Part shown: one piece after another, positions 5,820 through 46,332 of the stretch | Position numbering within the stretch: the stretch's first letter is position 1 | Layout: each line of letters starts with the position of its first letter | DNA from: a virus | UHGV virus genome: UHGV-0289467 | Direction: 5' to 3' (one strand) | Length of the DNA stretch: 46,550 nt | Made by a program: the position numbers and the translations under genes | The notes under the pieces: generated by a model | The model's database searches: none | The model's input: only the letters and a program-made list of their open reading frames with translations | Told to the model about the DNA's origin: nothing

Positions 5820-6020
5820 ATGGCGAGACAACGCAAAGAACCACTGGAAGTACTGACTGATATTATCGCTAAGCGCCAGCCGTTAAGCCTGCGAGATGTC
5901 AGATATTACGCGCACTGCTATGTAGCAATGCGGGAATGGAGCGCTGAAGAAATGTATGCGTTTGTGCGTGAACACTTCAGCGTGGATGAGAAAAACAAGG
6001 TTACATTGAGGGTGGAGTAA
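5820..6020 (+). CDS. hypothetical early protein
   Basis: 66-aa ORF, GGAG RBS; first gene of plus-strand early operon. Confidence 0.45.
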   Translation: MARQRKEPLEVLTDIIAKRQPLSLRDVRYYAHCYVAMREWSAEEMYAFVREHFSVDEKNKVTLRVE

Positions 6021-6214
6021 TGATGAAGTTTATCGTTCTTGATAACAGTGGCGGGAGTGCGATGACCGACAAGGAAAAGCATGGCGTCAGCTTCCGGGTG
6101 TTCAACAACCGCATCGATGCATGGGCGCATCTGATTGAGCACGACAATGGGCCGGATGCTCGCGTTGCTCAGATTGAAATTAAAATAATTGAAGAGAGTG
6201 GGGTGAATGAGTGA
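6020..6214 (+). CDS. hypothetical early protein
   Basis: 64 aa, TAATG coupling to upstream gene. Confidence 0.4.
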   Translation: MMKFIVLDNSGGSAMTDKEKHGVSFRVFNNRIDAWAHLIEHDNGPDARVAQIEIKIIEESGVNE

Positions 6215-6603
6215 TGATGATAAAACACAACTACCATAAAGGAAGTGAAGTTAGCGCCAGTGGCGAGCATGTGCGCATCAAGTGCGGAGATTTGATAATG
6301 GATGGCAAGTGGCATGAGGCCAATCTTGGCGCTAGTAACGGAACAGAAGCCCTTATAACCGAGCGCGGCAGCCGTTATGGCAAATTCAAAGACGGCGCAG
6401 AAATAATGCGGTCGCTGAAGCGAGTTATGCATGACACGGAGGGGTGGGGCAACCTGACGGCGAGCCAGAAGGAAGCGCTCGACATGATTCAGCATAAAAT
6501 CGGTCGCATCCTGAATGGCGACCCGATATACGACGATAGCTGGAAAGACATTGCTGGCTATGCAACATTAATTGTTAATGAACTGAATGGGGAGGTAAGG
6601 TGA
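6211..6603 (+). CDS. hypothetical early protein
   Basis: 130 aa, coupled. Confidence 0.4.
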   Translation: MMMIKHNYHKGSEVSASGEHVRIKCGDLIMDGKWHEANLGASNGTEALITERGSRYGKFKDGAEIMRSLKRVMHDTEGWGNLTASQKEALDMIQHKIGRILNGDPIYDDSWKDIAGYATLIVNELNGEVR

Positions 6604-14360: not shown

Positions 14361-16895
14361 TTATCTCCTGCTCCTTCTAATCCATCCAGAGCCTCGCTGT
14401 ACGATGTGATCGTTGCATGCATATCTGATTGCGTCAATGAAGTGGTTCCACGCATCCACAATATTTGTGAGCACGTTACCCGTCAGCTTGTCCACCTTGT
14501 AACTGTACATAGTGAACTCTTCCTGAGTCTGTGTGCAGCGGTCATGAATGATGATGCTGTCGCAACCCCTGAGCCAGGTTACACCCTCCTCCACGCTCCC
14601 GGGCCACTTATTGCATGGATGGATATCAAATCCTGCGCGTTTGATGTGACTGATTGTTTCTGGCCGAGAGCAGTCCCCATACCATCTTGCCTTCCTGGAG
14701 AGTGGGAATGATTGCTCCATCGCTGTAGGTGTGTCGGTAATCTCAAGGCCTACACGGCCGTATTCGCGCGCGACGTAAAGATTGCGTCGGTCATCAGGAA
14801 GTTTCTCAATGTAAACCTCAACCATCGCCGTTGCGTCCTGCGAGAATCCAAAGTCGATGCCAAAGTAAGGCCCATGCCATTCCGGCTTAACCTCGAAATC
14901 AGCAACGCGCCACTTACCGCCAAATACCTGCTCATCATTACGCTTATTAAAGCGCCCACCCCACACCCATTGATAGCGGTCGAAGTCGGTTTCTTTCATG
15001 CGCTGCATTTGGCTTGGGAGCGGAGTATCCCAGAACCACGGATTGTCTGAGTAATTACACTCGATAATCAGGTTTTCATCATCCTCATAGATGCCGCCAT
15101 TTTCGCGCAATTTATTATAAAAAGGCTCAACCCATATTTTCCACGTCGGGTCATGCTCTTTATTTGGGTTGAAAGTCACCCATATCTCTGACCCTTCAGC
15201 GCGGACTGTTGGGGTGAGGATTTCCCAGCTTGTCTGGCTGACGTTTTCCGCCTCCTCGACCCAAGCTACTGTAATGCCAGCGAAGCCTTTAACGGTCGTC
15301 TGGTTGCGATACAGCCCCTTAAATCTGAATTTTGCCTTCGTGCCTTTGTGGGTTATCTCATTATTGATGACGCGAAACTCTTTCGTTTCTCCCTTGCGAT
15401 CAATTTCGTCCTTCAGTTCCTGATATGAGCTATCTTCAATGGACTGCTGAATCTCACGAAAACAAGCTATCCTGTCAGGCTTAAAGCGTGCACGCTCCGT
15501 AAGTATTGTTGTTACTGTCCTTGTTTTTCCGCTGTTGTGTGTAACCGTGCCATCAGCAAGCAAGAAAAGATGATCGCCATCAAGAGTGAACCCAGCGTAT
15601 TCACCATGCCCGACATAAGACAATGACACCTCAGTCATCTTTCCACGGGTTGACTTGGTTTTCTCTGCTATCTTCCTTTTTACTCGGCATGGGATTGTAT
15701 GAAGGTCACCACTAACGAACACCTCCCATACGTCCTTTTCGTATATTCTTTTCTCACCTTTATATTCAAAGGTGATATCAGTCTTTTTGATTATGCTTGA
15801 CTTGAAGCCAAGCGATCTTGCCACATCCATCAAAGAGAAGGCCATTTCTTTATTTATTGATGTGAAAGAATAGCTTTTCTTTTTCTGGTCATAATGCGAA
15901 TCAGTATCCAATAGCCCAGCCAGAATCTGAAGTCTTACCTCTCTGCTGTTTTTGATATAGCAGTCAGGTATGTGTTTATTATTAATCACCCCAAGCTGCT
16001 GCATTTTAGTTAGTAACGGGTTGGTGTTCTTCCCCATGCCAGCAGCTCGACCATTAGTTATCGCATAGACAGGGCATCTATCATCGTCGCGAACCTTTAC
16101 CTGCATCCCGTATTGGCTTGCCACATTGTGAATGTAGTCAACTATCTCTGGATCAGGCGTGCACACTTCAACACCACGAGATGAACCATCACCTAACCAT
16201 AAACCAAGAAAGTACGGGTCAACTGGGACGCTTTGGTAATTAAAATCCCATCCTGTTCGCCACCCTTTAAAGACATGGCGGAACTTTTTGGAAGTTGCGC
16301 GCGACAAATATTCTGAAACACCAATATTCAGTATTTCAGGTTCATTCGGGTAATAACGATAAATTCTTTTACCATCCGGTGTTTTTGTCTCGTCACTGAT
16401 AGCAGATGGAATCTTTCGTAATGACAGTATGTGACTTGAGTTGACAGTGTAGTCATCAGCATATTTTTGATGAACCGTATACATGTCATCAAACCCCCGA
16501 CAGATGTTTAAAACATTTCGTGGTTTACTGTCTGGACCCATAACCTTATCGCCAACAACGATATCCTCTACGCGTTTTAGGCTACCATCAAACATCCTCA
16601 CCATCGTGCCGATGGCTAAGCATCCGCGCCCGCCAAACACAATCTTATTACGCTTGGGGTAAAGTAGCTTTTCCAGCTTTTCTGGTATCAGGTGATCAAC
16701 GCCAATATCAGAGTCGCTAACGTCATCAACTCCGCTTTGCGTCATTTTTAGTTTGCGAACAATCTGCTTATCTGTATTAACAACACCGAACACCGCAGAT
16801 TCAGGCGCATCAATCACGCCATCGCCAATAATCTCTTCGAGTTTTTCAATTGCTGGTGCTGAGAGTCTTTTGCGTGCCATATATAGATTCCTCAT
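14361..16895 (-). CDS. terminase large subunit, interrupted by an intein
   Basis: 844-aa ORF; N-extein ends …IVFGGRG, C-extein begins SGKTRTV… which rejoin to the Walker A box GGRGSGKT; C-terminal nuclease-like part; downstream of TerS. Confidence 0.9.
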   Translation of the reverse strand: MRNLYMARKRLSAPAIEKLEEIIGDGVIDAPESAVFGVVNTDKQIVRKLKMTQSGVDDVSDSDIGVDHLIPEKLEKLLYPKRNKIVFGGRGCLAIGTMVRMFDGSLKRVEDIVVGDKVMGPDSKPRNVLNICRGFDDMYTVHQKYADDYTVNSSHILSLRKIPSAISDETKTPDGKRIYRYYPNEPEILNIGVSEYLSRATSKKFRHVFKGWRTGWDFNYQSVPVDPYFLGLWLGDGSSRGVEVCTPDPEIVDYIHNVASQYGMQVKVRDDDRCPVYAITNGRAAGMGKNTNPLLTKMQQLGVINNKHIPDCYIKNSREVRLQILAGLLDTDSHYDQKKKSYSFTSINKEMAFSLMDVARSLGFKSSIIKKTDITFEYKGEKRIYEKDVWEVFVSGDLHTIPCRVKRKIAEKTKSTRGKMTEVSLSYVGHGEYAGFTLDGDHLFLLADGTVTHNSGKTRTVTTILTERARFKPDRIACFREIQQSIEDSSYQELKDEIDRKGETKEFRVINNEITHKGTKAKFRFKGLYRNQTTVKGFAGITVAWVEEAENVSQTSWEILTPTVRAEGSEIWVTFNPNKEHDPTWKIWVEPFYNKLRENGGIYEDDENLIIECNYSDNPWFWDTPLPSQMQRMKETDFDRYQWVWGGRFNKRNDEQVFGGKWRVADFEVKPEWHGPYFGIDFGFSQDATAMVEVYIEKLPDDRRNLYVAREYGRVGLEITDTPTAMEQSFPLSRKARWYGDCSRPETISHIKRAGFDIHPCNKWPGSVEEGVTWLRGCDSIIIHDRCTQTQEEFTMYSYKVDKLTGNVLTNIVDAWNHFIDAIRYACNDHIVQRGSGWIRRSRR
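15534..16622 (-). mobile_element. intein (363 aa) with LAGLIDADG homing endonuclease, inserted in the TerL P-loop
   Basis: starts with Cys (CLAIGTMV… block A), ends …LLADGTVTHN followed by Ser (+1); two LAGLIDADG motifs (FLGLWLGDGS and LAGLLDTDSH) in the middle. Confidence 0.85.
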
Positions 16896-41023: not shown

Positions 41024-41100
41024 TCCCGTTTAGCTTAACTGGTTAAAGCACCCGACTCATAATCGGATGATTACAGGTTCGAATCCTGTCGCGGGAACCA
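41024..41100 (+). tRNA. tRNA with CAU anticodon (Met elongator or Ile2/lysidine type)
   Basis: T-loop GGTTCGAATCC, D-stem GCTT/AAGC, anticodon loop CTCATAA, encoded CCA; anticodon arm CGACTCATAATCG identical to that of E. coli tRNA-Ile2(LAU). Confidence 0.7.
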
Positions 41101-41484
41101 TCACTCACCAAAAACAACCCTCAGCAACAACTCATAAACAGGCCTTTTCTCTGTCGTAAGCGTAGGGCGACCAAGCGGCGCCTGCAACTGAATCATGCCA
41201 ATACAACTATCAACGGGATGCTCTTTGATATATGAGATGACATCAAGCGCCTTTGCTTTTGTTTCCTCGATGTTGTACTGCCCCTGCTGGCCGACAACAT
41301 AGAGCGAAAAATAATAATCATTGCTGAGGTCTTTGCTTACGTTCGTGCCGCCATTGGATTGCAGCACCATAAACCGATCTGTGCCAACTTCAGTATCATT
41401 CCAGAACTCAAGCTGAGAAGTCCACCCGTCATAAAGACCGGCATCGCTAAGGTATTGGTCAACAAGCTCAAGCATATCTCTCAT
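41101..41484 (-). CDS. tail completion / tail terminator protein candidate
   Basis: 127 aa, last gene before tail tube in head-to-tail order. Confidence 0.4.
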   Translation of the reverse strand: MRDMLELVDQYLSDAGLYDGWTSQLEFWNDTEVGTDRFMVLQSNGGTNVSKDLSNDYYFSLYVVGQQGQYNIEETKAKALDVISYIKEHPVDSCIGMIQLQAPLGRPTLTTEKRPVYELLLRVVFGE

Positions 41485-41897
41485 TTTAGCGTCATCTCTT
41501 TTTTGATTACCTGATCGACAAGTTCGCGTGTGTTTTCGCCAGCCTTGAGAAGGAATTTAGGTTCGCCGCTCTTATCCCACACGTTACCCTTTCCTTTGAG
41601 TCTCCCTGTGCGTGGCGTGTTCGTACCAAGCAGTTTACCTGGTGCATTGTGGACATACAGAGCATAATTAGCTGCATACCCAATCTTGCCAGTTATGCGA
41701 GTGCCATTAACCTCAACAGTATCATACTGGCTGTTTATCAGCGTTGATGTGGCTACTGGCGTCATGGAGGCCGATTCAGTCCTGATGATGTAGTTGGCGG
41801 CTTTTATTGCTGATACCGCCTTCTCGCCAGTAATCTCGCCGACTATCTGCTGAGTGCGCTTAATAGCCTGCTGGATACCTCTCATTTTGGCGGCCAT
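41481..41897 (-). CDS. head-tail joining protein (HK97 gp10-like candidate)
   Basis: 138 aa in connector block. Confidence 0.4.
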   Translation of the reverse strand: MAAKMRGIQQAIKRTQQIVGEITGEKAVSAIKAANYIIRTESASMTPVATSTLINSQYDTVEVNGTRITGKIGYAANYALYVHNAPGKLLGTNTPRTGRLKGKGNVWDKSGEPKFLLKAGENTRELVDQVIKKEMTLK

Positions 41898-42363: not shown

Positions 42364-42756
42364 TCATCTGCACTTACTCCCGGTGACAACCCGAAACCAC
42401 GGCTTTGCACTTCCATCAGGCTCTTCCACAAGGTCGCCGGTGCAGTCTGCCGTATCGAGTAGTTTCATCTGATTGTAAAGGGCCATCCACGGCTTGCTTC
42501 CATAGCCAAATGATTGCGACGCACCAGATGGCGCCCGATGGCTGGTGATGTATCTTCCGGCTGTATTTGAGGCGATCAGGATAGATGCCCATAGCAGAAT
42601 CGCATCCTGCCTGCATGTGTCTTCAGGGTAATTAAGCTCAAGGCACTCTGTGATGCTCACCACCAGACACAGGATGCCCGTTGCGTCAGCTGTGGTGATA
42701 GTTACGCCTCTTGACGCCATGGCGGCGACAAGTTCACTTGCTGTCGGTGCTGCCAT
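42364..42756 (-). CDS. head-tail adaptor protein candidate
   Basis: about 130 aa from Met with GGGAGAG RBS. Confidence 0.4.
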   Translation of the reverse strand: MAAPTASELVAAMASRGVTITTADATGILCLVVSITECLELNYPEDTCRQDAILLWASILIASNTAGRYITSHRAPSGASQSFGYGSKPWMALYNQMKLLDTADCTGDLVEEPDGSAKPWFRVVTGSKCR

Positions 42757-43021
42757 TCTTTTTGCTCTCCCGAATCTTCCACCACATCTCAAAAAGGTTT
42801 TTTGCCACCAGTGACAACGCGCCAAGTATAGAGGCTACCGCCGCCCACTCGGTAATCGAATGGGGGAACATTGAGGCAATGTATGATTGCGCTACTGGCG
42901 TCTGCTCTGCCACCTTCAGGCCAAGGCCCGTACCAATGGACGTATAACCGGCTTTGTCGATTACCTGTCCGACGGTGCCACTAATTATCTGGTTTGCGGC
43001 GTGCTGAAGCGCGTCTCTCAT
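42734..43021 (-). CDS. hypothetical protein with C-terminal hydrophobic helix
   Basis: 95 aa; AAVASILGALSLVAKNLF hydrophobic segment; first gene of minus connector operon. Confidence 0.4.
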   Translation of the reverse strand: MRDALQHAANQIISGTVGQVIDKAGYTSIGTGLGLKVAEQTPVAQSYIASMFPHSITEWAAVASILGALSLVAKNLFEMWWKIRESKKNGSTDSK

Positions 43022-43167: not shown

Positions 43168-43211
43168 TTTTATCATAAAGTGTTGACGTAGATTGAGGGT
43201 GTCGCTATAGT
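43168..43211 (+). promoter_or_regulatory. promoter module TTTTATCATAA-N4-TTGACGTAGATTGA-N9-TATAGT
   Basis: TTGACG 43183-43188, 17-bp spacer, TATAGT 43206-43211; second copy TGACGTAGAAAC at 43214-43225. Confidence 0.55.
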
Positions 43212-43542: not shown

Positions 43543-43655
43543 TTCGCCACGAAATCCGCAAAGAAGATCTGAAGGCGTGGGATAAGTTCAAAATCAAGCT
43601 GGCATTAATAGTTATCGGATTCGCCATTGCCAGCGCAATCTGTTTATCAAAGTGA
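43539..43655 (+). CDS. small single-TM membrane protein (38 aa)
   Basis: MIRHEIRKEDLKAWDKFKIKLALIVIGFAIASAICLSK; ATGA coupling. Confidence 0.3.
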   Translation: MIRHEIRKEDLKAWDKFKIKLALIVIGFAIASAICLSK

Positions 43656-43662
43656 GGAAAAA

Positions 43663-44481
43663 ATGACATCTCTCGGAAAAATTTACTCAGACAAAGAAAC
43701 TCGCGGCGGAATCGTGGTCAACAAAGGTTATCAGGTTCCCGTCGACCAGCTTTATCTTGAACCGGGATACAACATCCGCGAAGCCGATGAGCAGCACGTT
43801 GAATACTTTGCGCAGTGCTGGGAATCAGGCCAGCCAATCCCGGCGTTAACTGTTATTCCTGATGCTGACGGAAAGCGCATCAAGATTCTTGACGGTCAGC
43901 ATCGTTACCTTGGCGCACTGCGTGCCATTGATCGCGGTGTACCAATTGCGCGCATTGAGTGCAAAGACTTCACCGGCGATGAAGCGGACAAAATCGCCTT
44001 CATGGTGTCATCCAGTCAAGGAAAGCAGCTTGACCCGCTTGAGCGTGCAAAGGCTTATGTGCGCCTGAAAGGGTTCGGATGGACGAATGAAGAAATCGCC
44101 AAGAAGGTTGGTCGCTCAGTTTCTGATGTGCAGATGCACCTGTCACTTGGTGATGTACCTGATTCCATCAAGCAACGCATCAATGCAGGCCAAATCAGCT
44201 ATGCCAACGCCGTTGCAGTGGCGCGTGAGCATGGCGATGATGCCGTTAACGTTATTGATGCTGCCGTTGAGGAAGCAAAAGCACAGGGCAAAGATAAGGT
44301 GACGGCCAAAACGCTCAAGGCCAAAAAAGTTAAGCCGATTGACCGCCTGATTCAGTTGCTGAAAGAAGCAGATCATATGGTGGTTGCTGAGGGTCATGTG
44401 GCACAGGAGACAGAAGAATTTTTGCGCCTTCCTTCCGCTGAGTTGAGTGAAGTTCTGGCTATTCTGGAGAAGCTGCGATGA
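43663..44481 (+). CDS. ParB N-terminal-domain (ParB/Srx-like) nuclease-like protein
   Basis: 272 aa from GAGGAA-supported ATG; …VPVDQLYLEPGYNIREAD…ALTVIPDADGKRIKILDGQHRYLGAL… matches the ParB/sulfiredoxin fold signature (DGxHR). Confidence 0.65.
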   Translation: MTSLGKIYSDKETRGGIVVNKGYQVPVDQLYLEPGYNIREADEQHVEYFAQCWESGQPIPALTVIPDADGKRIKILDGQHRYLGALRAIDRGVPIARIECKDFTGDEADKIAFMVSSSQGKQLDPLERAKAYVRLKGFGWTNEEIAKKVGRSVSDVQMHLSLGDVPDSIKQRINAGQISYANAVAVAREHGDDAVNVIDAAVEEAKAQGKDKVTAKTLKAKKVKPIDRLIQLLKEADHMVVAEGHVAQETEEFLRLPSAELSEVLAILEKLR

Positions 44482-44650
44482 ACCCCGAACAATTCATAGA
44501 GAAAAACCTGCGCGAAAAACTGCCAGGCATCGACAATGCGGCCATAGAGGCCGCAATTACCCACTACAGGCGCAACAAGAGTGAAAGGAAGGGCAAGACT
44601 TTCGATGAATGCTTGAAGGTTGCAAAACAACACATGGTGAAGGTGAAGTG
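44478..44650 (+). CDS. hypothetical small basic protein (57 aa)
   Basis: ATGA-coupled to ParB-like gene, below track cutoff. Confidence 0.3.
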
Positions 44651-45187
44651 ATGAAATTAAAAGTTAGCAAGTTGCTCCTTGAAGGTGCTTTGATATTTCA
44701 GGCCAAACAGGATGTGCGTTACTACCTGAATGGCATTTGCTTTATGCCTGATGGTCGCGTTGCCGCTACTGACGGTCATCGCGCCATGATTGCCAGTAAG
44801 CACGAAAACAAGATAAAAAGTAACGTCATCGTGTCGATAAGCAAGTCGCCGACAAAAAATTACTCCTATGCAGTGATTGATACCAGGGCAAAGATTGTCA
44901 CTTATCATAACAATTTTGATGTGCTGGTTGGCGCAGGTATTTGCTCTGAGGTTGGTGGCAAGTTCCCTGATATTGATCGCGTCATCCCGAAGCAGACTGC
45001 GCCAGCAGAACAGATTGGCTTTAATGCCAAATATCTGGCAGATGTTGAGAAGCTGGCGAAGCTGTTTAGCCCGAAATGTGAAAGCGTACGCTTTGAACTG
45101 AACGGAAACATCAACGCCGCCGTCGCAAACATCAGCGCGCCCACTGGCGAGACTGCCAAAGTTATTGTTATGCCAATGAGGATTTAG
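44651..45187 (+). CDS. truncated DNA polymerase III beta sliding clamp (DnaN) homolog, domains II-III only
   Basis: 178 aa; [33 protein letters not shown]… aligns with E. coli DnaN …[35 protein letters not shown]…; C-terminus …[10 protein letters not shown] aligns with …AAYVVMPMRL. Confidence 0.75.
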   Translation: [178 protein letters not shown]

Positions 45188-45189
45188 TG

Positions 45190-45441
45190 ATGAAAAAGAA
45201 TGGCGTTTTTACTCAGAAGGACGGCTCAAAAGTTGCCCGTCTTGGTGATGGTTACGTTGGCATTAAATTTGGCTCTTGCCATGGTGAAAAGTTAATAGCC
45301 ATTGCGAATATCATAAATCGTGGAGTGCCGGGCGATGAAGTTGATGATATTGATGAGGCGCAAATTTATATCACATTCAAAGACAACGCCTCAATTCAGC
45401 GGCTGATTGATGGCCTCGTCAATCTCCGCGACCATAAGTAA
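45190..45441 (+). CDS. hypothetical protein
   Basis: 83 aa, last gene of island, followed by terminator. Confidence 0.4.
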   Translation: MKKNGVFTQKDGSKVARLGDGYVGIKFGSCHGEKLIAIANIINRGVPGDEVDDIDEAQIYITFKDNASIQRLIDGLVNLRDHK

Positions 45442-45442
45442 A

Positions 45443-45470
45443 CAAAGCCCCTTTCGGGGCTTTTCTTTTA
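45443..45470. terminator. bidirectional rho-independent terminator
   Basis: AAAGCCCCtttcGGGGCTTTTCTTTT. Confidence 0.7.
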
Positions 45471-46289
45471 TCACGGAAGATAAGCGTCATCCTCAAACCA
45501 CGAAACGTAAGCATTGATATTTTGCGCCGCAGTATCCAGCGATGTGATGCGTAACAGATAGGTGGTATTGGGCGCCATGATGACCTGCTCACCAAGTTTT
45601 GCCTGTGAATTACCCTGCCCCTGGTTTGATGCGTTCCCTTCACTATACGTCGCGGCCGCCGTCAGCTGACCAATACTTGTCACCGTAGAGCCAGTCAGAA
45701 GCTGCGCTGTTGCAGTATGCGGTGCGATGTCATTTGGGTTATTAATCTCCGCAGCGGTGCCTCCTGTTGCTACAGCTCCACGGTAAATTGACGCTACGAC
45801 ACCTTTCCCGGTGTAGCCAATGATACGCTGGTTAAAAACGACCTGTTTTGACCCGGTAATAAAAATACTGTCAAGGTTAGCCCCGCCAGCGACATCAGTC
45901 ACGCGACGAGATGCATTGAATAGCTTTCCCTGCTTATTGGCAAGCTCAGTATAGGGCTGAGCGACGACCTGACTTGATGGCACTGAGGTGTCAGCTCGCC
46001 ACACCAGGACTTTCAGGGATGCAACGCCGACAGGGAGCTGTGACTTTATCACTTTCAGTCGCAGTGCCACACCATAATAATTATTATTGTTGACATCAAT
46101 CCAGAAGTCACCAGATGCAAAAGGCGACACCATTATGGAAACAGATCCGCTTGTTAATGGTGCGTGACCGCCGGAAGAGTTTAATGGCACAATCTGCACC
46201 TGCAATGCAGTCCAGTCTGCTGACATGGTTTCGCTAAGCAAAACCTCTCCGTCAGCCGGAGTTGTGTTTATTTCGTACCTGACAGCCAT
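45471..46289 (-). CDS. hypothetical beta-rich structural protein
   Basis: 272 aa from GGGGG-supported ATG; Thr/Ser/Gly/Val-rich, no TM; lies in the late structural region. Confidence 0.4.
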   Translation of the reverse strand: MAVRYEINTTPADGEVLLSETMSADWTALQVQIVPLNSSGGHAPLTSGSVSIMVSPFASGDFWIDVNNNNYYGVALRLKVIKSQLPVGVASLKVLVWRADTSVPSSQVVAQPYTELANKQGKLFNASRRVTDVAGGANLDSIFITGSKQVVFNQRIIGYTGKGVVASIYRGAVATGGTAAEINNPNDIAPHTATAQLLTGSTVTSIGQLTAAATYSEGNASNQGQGNSQAKLGEQVIMAPNTTYLLRITSLDTAAQNINAYVSWFEDDAYLP

Positions 46290-46298
46290 GATAACCCC

Positions 46299-46332
46299 CA
46301 ATAAAAAACCCGCTTGTTTGCGGGTTTATTTT
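46299..46332. terminator. rho-independent terminator
   Basis: AAAAAACCCGCttgttGCGGGTTTATTTT. Confidence 0.6.

Follow-up and report, generated by a model that had tools for sequence, protein, structure and literature searches.

A truncated relative of the beta sliding clamp in a phage genome lacks the ring-closing interface and keeps the residues of the docking pocket

In bacteria the beta sliding clamp, DnaN, serves replication and repair as their central docking hub, and it has been validated as an antibiotic target. In the UHGV virus genome UHGV-0289467, analysed here as one stretch of 46,550 nucleotides (the window), an open reading frame (ORF) at 44651..45187 on the + strand (178 aa plus stop) encodes a truncated DnaN derivative, a member of the phage protein family phrog_3007, which we call mini-beta. 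What a phage could do with a sliding clamp of about half the normal size is the question that this locus raises. The original prediction, made from the letters of the window only, had placed the gene at these positions and described its product as a beta clamp homologue which lacks domain I and cannot form a normal ring. The reading frame proved to be real, and this description of the protein was borne out.

What mini-beta has lost and kept of the clamp

When mini-beta was compared with all PDB chains by phmmer, enterobacterial beta clamps were matched at E 6.9e-15. An AlphaFold2 model, computed with 132 diverse homologues, reached a predicted local distance difference test score (pLDDT) of 97.1 and a predicted template modelling (TM) score, pTM, of 0.90, and the best 50 matches of this model in a Foldseek search of the PDB were all beta clamps. 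Profile and structure matches of the monomer to the sliding clamp, which the original prediction had pointed to as its check, were therefore significant, and the homology of mini-beta to DnaN is unambiguous. Mini-beta is nevertheless a diverged offshoot of DnaN and not a DnaN. The TIGR00663 (dnaN) profile matched it at E 5e-11 with 42.1 bits, below the curated cut-off of 137.65. Among the Pfam clamp families concerned (DNA_pol3_beta, DNA_pol3_beta_2 and DNA_pol3_beta_3), PF02767 and PF02768 scored 18.7 and 18.9 bits, both below the cut-off of 27, and the model of the N-terminal clamp domain found no match in mini-beta; three complete clamp domains would take ~366 aa, against the 178 aa of this protein.

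The alignment to Escherichia coli beta covers residues 136-251 (domain II) and 311-366 (the last half of domain III) only, with 38% identity (63/165 aligned positions), while E. coli residues 252-310 are without counterpart and the first half of domain III is thus absent. Residues 1-117 of mini-beta (44651..45001, + strand) map to domain II (E. coli beta ~131-250), and residues 119-178 (45005..45184, + strand) derive from the last beta-alpha-beta-beta-beta half of domain III (E. coli 313-366); in global alignment, the C-terminal 60 residues scored 89.5 with this half-domain, III-B, and no more than 14 with every other half-domain. Here the original prediction went too far, since it had read the protein as domains II-III and as matching the C-terminal two domains almost residue for residue; these two domains comprise ~245 aa, and what is left in mini-beta is about one and a half domains minus one helix. 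A 9-residue loop (residues 64-72; 44840..44866, + strand), in which P67 is 83% conserved, stands in place of the second inner helix of domain II. Secondary structure assignment of the model by DSSP gave no helix between residues 28 and 107, and the model has two long helices against the three expected from the corresponding DnaN segments. Both retained helices correspond to DNA-facing helices of the clamp. As modelled, mini-beta would retain the domain II sheet, continuous into the last three strands of domain III, plus the two inner helices; a sheet running from domain II into the last strands of domain III belongs to the established topology of clamp domains. Domain I has gone altogether, domain III has lost its first half and domain II a helix, and the interface which closes the ring has disappeared with them.

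The head-to-tail interface of E. coli beta is made up of 13 residues (K74, I78, R96, R103, R105, F106, I272, L273, E298-E304; PMC11139829), in which I78 and F106 face I272 and L273 and ion pairs are added. All 13 of them lie in segments that are deleted from mini-beta. As both halves of the interface are missing, mini-beta is unable to form the canonical dimeric ring. The same loss bears on the proposal, made in the original prediction, that the protein could poison the clamp by pairing with host beta. Ring closure or loading of the host protomer would then be blocked. Mini-beta does share the clamp fold with host beta, but with both interface halves gone heterodimerisation through the normal interface is unlikely, and we give clamp poisoning of this kind very little credence.

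A closed ring of a new type, which would make mini-beta a true phage sliding clamp, is a further possibility. Such a ring, for example a D2-symmetric tetramer in which the C-terminal half-domains pair into a pseudo-domain, is topologically possible, because the monomer amounts to 3 of 12 beta-alpha-beta-beta-beta-type units, both of its end sheets are without their normal neighbour, and 4 x 3 gives the 12 sheet units of beta2. Its inner face would carry conserved basic residues, and E. coli beta*, an N-terminally shortened form of the clamp, is said to be a trimer. On the other hand, the tetramer would have only 8 inner helices instead of 12, the native-type interface residues are all absent, the monomer is modelled very confidently alone, and the mini-beta gene is accompanied by neither a clamp loader nor a polymerase. 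We consider a ring of this kind quite improbable.

While the interface has disappeared, the pocket that receives clamp-binding motifs has not. When the 18 residues listed for its subsites I and II in a review (PMC11139829) were located in mini-beta, 18/18 could be aligned and 15/18 were identical to E. coli beta, the substitutions being L177A, V344I and V360I. The clamp-binding pocket, for which the original prediction had suggested a look, thus appears complete at the level of sequence. Its residues are spread over the protein as R23 and L26 (=R152, L155) in DVRYYLNG (residues 21-28; 44711..44734), T40, G42, H43, R44 and A45 (=T172, G174, H175, R176, L177) in ATDGHRA (39-45; 44765..44785), P106, R110 and V111 (=P242, R246, V247) in GKFPDIDRV (103-111; 44957..44983), N125 and Y128 (=N320, Y323) in IGFNAKY (122-128; 45014..45034), and I172, M174, P175, M176 and R177 (=V360, M362, P363, M364, R365) in IVMPMR (172-177; 45164..45181), all on the + strand.

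Conservation was assessed in 132 diverse family members, 26-50% identical to the query and gathered by similarity to it. Mean conservation was 0.73 at pocket positions and 0.36 in the remainder, and ten of the 20 most conserved positions belonged to the pocket (R23, L26, T40, G42, H43, P106, Y128, M174, P175 and R177), each of them conserved at 83-99% (hypergeometric p 7.6e-7). Several of these residues lie on the surface of the clamp, and that they are kept in a family which is otherwise only ~30% identical speaks for ligand binding having been retained. The protein has also changed in charge: the isoelectric point is 9.4 for mini-beta and 8.3 for the family median against 5.25 for E. coli beta, that is, the family is basic and the host clamp acidic. 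Conserved lysine or arginine residues are found at positions 11, 19, 134, 137 and 142, on or beside the two retained helices, and also at position 104.

A family of short phage proteins and its labels

When 1.84 billion representative proteins were searched with HMMER, 144 clusters (at 50% identity) were returned with E <= 1e-10. In the best 150 representative clusters nearly all proteins were 170-220 aa long and matched from end to end. Full-length clamps, which the original prediction had named as the kind of ortholog that would speak against it, did not occur among the close relatives in this search. Two long matches, P0264 and P0265, were spurious, both being WD40-repeat proteins matched through 'ICFSPDG'. 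The phrog_3007 profile (E 8.3e-57) aligned residues 1-178 of mini-beta with positions 1-186 of 190. Mini-beta and the short phage family share the motifs DxRYYLNG, TDGH, FPD, Y and MPxR, and a Foldseek search of BFVD matched the mini-beta model with phage homologues of 178-196 aa at TM scores of 0.82-0.89 and root-mean-square deviations of 2.2-3.1 A.

By tblastn the family was found in 239 to 275 of 50,697 phage records, with hosts which include Salmonella, Escherichia, Klebsiella, Vibrio, Burkholderia and Proteus. The gene is therefore not the unfamiliar oddity which the original prediction took it for, as many of these ~240-275 records already annotate it as 'DNA polymerase III beta subunit'. 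For the search of related loci an alignment of 17 family sequences was used; most contig matches below ~35% identity were set aside, as their match pattern looks like chromosomal dnaN rather than the short family. A collection of complete E. coli genomes, searched with the DNA of the lambdoid variant described below, gave no match.

Among close relatives the median ratio of nonsynonymous to synonymous substitution rates (dN/dS) was 0.096 (123 pairs), which indicates purifying selection. This value has to be set against the view that mini-beta is what remains, without function, of a captured dnaN fragment; for this view one could cite the truncation relative to DnaN, the scores below the Pfam and TIGRFAM cut-offs and the loss of the gene in one close relative of the window phage, Klebsiella phage vB_KpnS_MK54. 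Length and architecture are however kept across at least 144 clusters at 50% identity, the AlphaFold2 model has a pLDDT of 97, and the gene is translationally coupled in an operon. We see next to no likelihood that it is a relic.

The labels given to the family in phage records are diverse, and comprise 'DNA polymerase III beta subunit', 'beta sliding clamp', 'hypothetical protein' and 'RusA-like Holliday junction resolvase', while Bcep43 gp15 is labelled 'DNA Pol III b subunit fragment'. The resolvase label originates with phrog_3007 and was copied from there, for example to NC_071143 gp74 and NC_005342 gp15. That mini-beta is a RusA-like resolvase, as many RefSeq/Pharokka annotations have it, is a claim for which we found only this label and its copies; no Pfam RusA match was obtained at E <= 1, and every sequence and structure match was to a sliding clamp. 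The fold evidence refutes the RusA function, which we dismiss as a propagated mis-annotation that our result corrects. One paper (PMC9901506) relies on the gene as a phylogenetic marker under the name 'DNA polymerase III beta', and we caution against treating it as a 'DNA polymerase' when phage phylogenies are built. The bare observation of homology to DnaN is not new, since it has been in annotations since the Bcep phage genomes. In the searchable literature we found no account of the precise architecture, in which the pocket remains although the interface and two helices are gone, of the way in which pocket conservation across the family goes together with a shift to a basic protein, or of the repeated location of the gene beside lambdoid replication genes.

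Genomic settings and the proposed role

A typical lambdoid early-right operon contains the mini-beta gene in Hafnia phage yong1 and in some 25-30 IMG/VR contigs (44-47% identity). The gene order is cI (on the opposite strand), cro, cII and mini-beta, followed by O with lambda-P-like, DnaB-like or DnaC-like genes, and the identity of the neighbours is supported by the Pfam families Phage_CII, Phage_rep_O, Phage_lambda_P, DnaB and Peptidase_S24. In several other lineages the gene lies near superfamily 2 (SF2) helicases, homologous to the 644-aa helicase of the window, or near DnaB or primase-helicase genes. Mini-beta is thus a selected, widespread gene which is associated with replication modules. 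A different setting was observed in Kagunavirus fFiEco03 (5965-6486) and in the Burkholderia myovirus Bcep43 (5998-6579), where a lone mini-beta gene stands antisense among head-morphogenesis genes. Together with the window (43627-45441), three unrelated phage groups carry mini-beta antisense in the head or structural block, and the recurrent spot lies between a Mu-F-like head gene and capsid or protease genes.

The lambdoid setting agrees with the main rival of the explanation we favour, according to which mini-beta would be an open tether independent of any loader, working by analogy with herpesvirus UL42. It would sit on phage DNA through its basic concave face while its pocket held host DNA polymerase III (Pol III) or other clamp-binding proteins, and would boost phage replication when host clamps or their loading become limiting. 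That phage lambda benefits from more DnaN (bioRxiv 10.1101/2024.10.31.621285) also fits. One inner helix has however been lost from mini-beta, fFiEco03 bears a family gene plus a family-A polymerase of its own, and a clamp-binding motif was not found in its replication proteins; besides, the gene is dispensable, as described below. On this evidence we think a tether unlikely, while still according it some weight.

The presence of the gene in fFiEco03 also means that mini-beta is not tied to phages without a polymerase. The original prediction had noted that the window encodes no DNA polymerase, which holds for all its ORFs of at least 180 aa, and none is annotated in the complete relative, Flyfo siphovirus Tbat1_6; its argument from there to an adaptor for host Pol III is not general, given the family-A polymerase of fFiEco03. 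Nor does an essential replication adaptor accord with what was found in Klebsiella phage vB_KpnS_MK54 (NC_071146). At 2380-2970, corresponding to window 44477-45600, this phage has the same operon with flanks 94-97% identical to the window, from which mini-beta has been deleted; the remnant is the last 21 nt of the ORF (VMPMRI and the stop), homology resuming at window position 45167. As it has been cleanly deleted from so nearly identical a phage, mini-beta is an accessory gene, polymorphic among very close relatives.

Such presence and absence among near-identical phages could also be expected of an anti-defence decoy, whose pocket would soak up toxins, peptides or other effectors which plug the beta clamp pocket, or effectors which sense the clamp. 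The conserved pocket would suit this role, as would the position of the gene, which in three unrelated phage groups occupies a small island that is transcribed independently and runs antisense to structural genes. There are precedents for a toxin directed at the pocket and for self-resistance through a DnaN copy, Caulobacter SocB being a toxin that targets the clamp pocket and an extra DnaN copy conferring griselimycin self-resistance. But a PADLOC scan of the four proteins of the operon matched no model, no defence or anti-defence neighbours were recognised, and the lambdoid copies lie within a replication operon and not in a moron or anti-defence locus. A decoy directed against defence systems seems improbable to us.

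The explanation which we favour is that mini-beta binds host partners through its pocket and acts as a competitor or decoy; to the binding of host partners through the pocket we would give about an even chance. It would be an accessory phage protein, derived from a proteobacterial DnaN and pared down to the part which bears the protein-docking pocket, that is, the pocket bound in the clamp by the QLxLF-type motifs of Pol III alpha, clamp-loader delta, Hda, Pol II/IV/V and MutS/MutL. It would be made from its own operon in the window phage, and in the lambdoid relatives from the early rightward operon beside the replication genes. Competing with the host beta ring, it would bind host clamp-binding proteins through its pocket, possibly while associated with DNA through the basic concave face, and part of the host replication and repair machinery would be re-allocated or blocked during phage DNA replication. 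The clamp mimic acting on clamp-binding partners, which the original prediction had put forward among other roles, fits the data in that the full pocket appears to be kept and no other part of the family is as well conserved. We prefer a decoy or competitor to an essential adaptor because the gene is dispensable and is present in phages with their own polymerase. More tentatively, mini-beta may be a free-standing copy of the pocket, a hub mimic, that titrates or re-routes delta, Hda, mismatch-repair factors, translesion factors or pocket-targeting toxins, possibly bound to DNA without encircling it.

Phage precedents for targeting the clamp hub are known, since the lambda small RNA (sRNA) PreS raises dnaN translation (bioRxiv 10.1101/2024.10.31.621285), Mu MuC uses clamp-binding motifs to bind the clamp (PMC12867686), and a complex of phage Gp168 with the clamp is PDB entry 7evp. 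Several points weigh against competition for host partners. Titration of Pol III alpha or delta would hurt a phage that apparently relies on host Pol III. The Kagunavirus polymerase, helicases and nucleases yielded no clamp-binding motif, and no candidate for a partner encoded by the phage itself emerged. The pocket is also the most conserved part of true DnaN, and the family members were collected by similarity, so its conservation is partly expected from ancestry and from the selection of members. Finally, the searchable literature holds annotation-level mentions only, and no binding, expression or phenotype data for any family member.

If a hub mimic is true, many unrelated phages would share a common handle on the host replisome, and mini-beta would represent a new class of phage effector. 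At about half the size of DnaN it would also serve as a natural minimal scaffold for studies and screens of pocket ligands.

The operon of the window phage and comparison with known systems

In the window mini-beta is the third of four tightly coupled genes in an operon that runs antisense within the structural gene block. The first large gene (43627..44481, + strand) encodes a ParB-like protein with HTH_ParB/KorB matches and a DGQHR motif, and its stop overlaps the next start (ATGA); the original prediction had noticed this neighbour, and it does lie in the same operon. It adjoins the clamp-like gene only in lineages with at least 58% clamp identity, that is, in the lineage of the window. The second gene, a 57-aa ORF (44478..44651, + strand) of phrog_4439 with unassigned function, is translationally coupled to mini-beta, and the last, an 84-aa ORF (45187..45441, + strand), has no family match. 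In Tbat1_6 two extra small genes, gp76 and gp77, occupy 41099-41550 between the ParB-like gene and the 57-aa ORF (compare window 44477-44481); as they are not in the window, the small-gene content of the operon varies.

The ATG of mini-beta at 44651 is preceded by AAGGTG, which resembles a Shine-Dalgarno sequence, and overlaps the stop of the 57-aa ORF as TGATG. Many gene callers choose an in-frame ATG at 44609 instead, which gives a 192-aa alternative, and many database entries for the family (192-193 aa) begin at this upstream ATG (window 44609-44650). We favour the start at 44651 and the 178-aa form because the N-termini of the family read MK[LI]K[VI]S and because of the Shine-Dalgarno-like sequence and the TGATG coupling. 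A sigma-70-like promoter candidate lies upstream of the operon (43183..43211, + strand; TTGACG-17-TATAGT, 10/12), although it is a consensus match only and such sites are no commoner in the window than in shuffles. Downstream, a strong bidirectional hairpin terminator at 45444..45463 (AAAGCCCC-TTTC-GGGGCTTT and a T run) closes the operon against the convergent structural genes; its GC-rich 8-bp stem (AAAGCCCC/GGGGCTTT) is perfect, T-runs are present on both strands, and the structural gene facing it lies at 45471-46301.

The proteome of the window contained two strict clamp-binding motifs only, which we estimate to be at or below the number expected by chance. QMKLL in a 153-aa ORF (42364-42825) and QMHLSL at residues 169-174 of the ParB-like protein, the latter inside its predicted helix-turn-helix, were rejected as evidence of a partner.

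The window represents an almost complete siphovirus genome in reverse orientation. Its close relatives are Tbat1_6 and the Klebsiella phages 6991, ZCKP8, ZCKp20p and ZC2, with 90-95% nucleotide identity over most of its length. The term T1-like, used in the original prediction, can stand as a loose description only, since close relatives have been placed outside Drexlerviridae (PMC9901506). The replication module consists of two helicases, a primase, an Erf-type annealase, an ExoVIII-type exonuclease and a single-stranded DNA-binding protein. The large terminase ORF (14361-16895, - strand) is 844 aa long against 475 aa in Tbat1_6; terminase profiles match only its residues 84-455 and 453-840, and there is no nucleotide similarity to Tbat1_6 in this region. 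It could be a terminase of a different type, a fusion, or the product of an intein or homing-element insertion.

Among known proteins, mini-beta is closest to the short phage 'DNA polymerase III beta' family, phrog_3007, of which it is a member with the same length, predicted fold and motifs. Examples of this family are Bcep43 gp15, fFiEco03 gp06, Hafnia phage yong1 gp27 and a protein of Pantoea phage LIET2, and its contexts differ, being the ParB-like operon in the window, the interval between cII and O in lambdoid phages and a lone antisense head-module gene in Kagunavirus and Bcep43. Bacterial DnaN (E. coli beta; PDB 2POL, 1MMI) has 366 aa against 178 aa; in comparison with it mini-beta is missing the whole of domain I, the dimer interface and, from domains II and III, the second helix and the first half respectively; it is basic and not acidic, and is encoded by a phage as an accessory gene. 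E. coli beta* is reportedly a 26-kDa product of an internal start in dnaN consisting of domains II-III, a finding attributed to Skaliter and to Paz-Elizur and their colleagues in 1996, the former of whom are said to have described a trimeric ring. Mini-beta would resemble beta* in being truncated N-terminally near the same boundary (~residue 135) with the pocket kept; unlike beta*, which is said to have complete domains II and III and half of the interface, it has in addition lost one helix and ~60 residues of domain III. The herpesvirus factors UL42 of herpes simplex virus (HSV), a monomer, and UL44 of human cytomegalovirus (HCMV), a C-shaped dimer, have the clamp fold without encircling DNA, and their basic DNA-binding surface together with a groove for docking the polymerase may offer a working analogy for mini-beta. 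Lastly, Mu MuC, Gp168 of Twort-like phages, the lambda PreS sRNA and N4 gp8, which acts on delta, have the same likely target network as mini-beta, namely the beta clamp and its partners. Other phages thus bind the clamp, as with Gp168 and MuC, or raise its level, as with PreS, and a copy of the pocket only would be a different strategy. The host clamp or its loader is what these phage factors bind or regulate, whereas mini-beta would imitate the binding site of the clamp itself.
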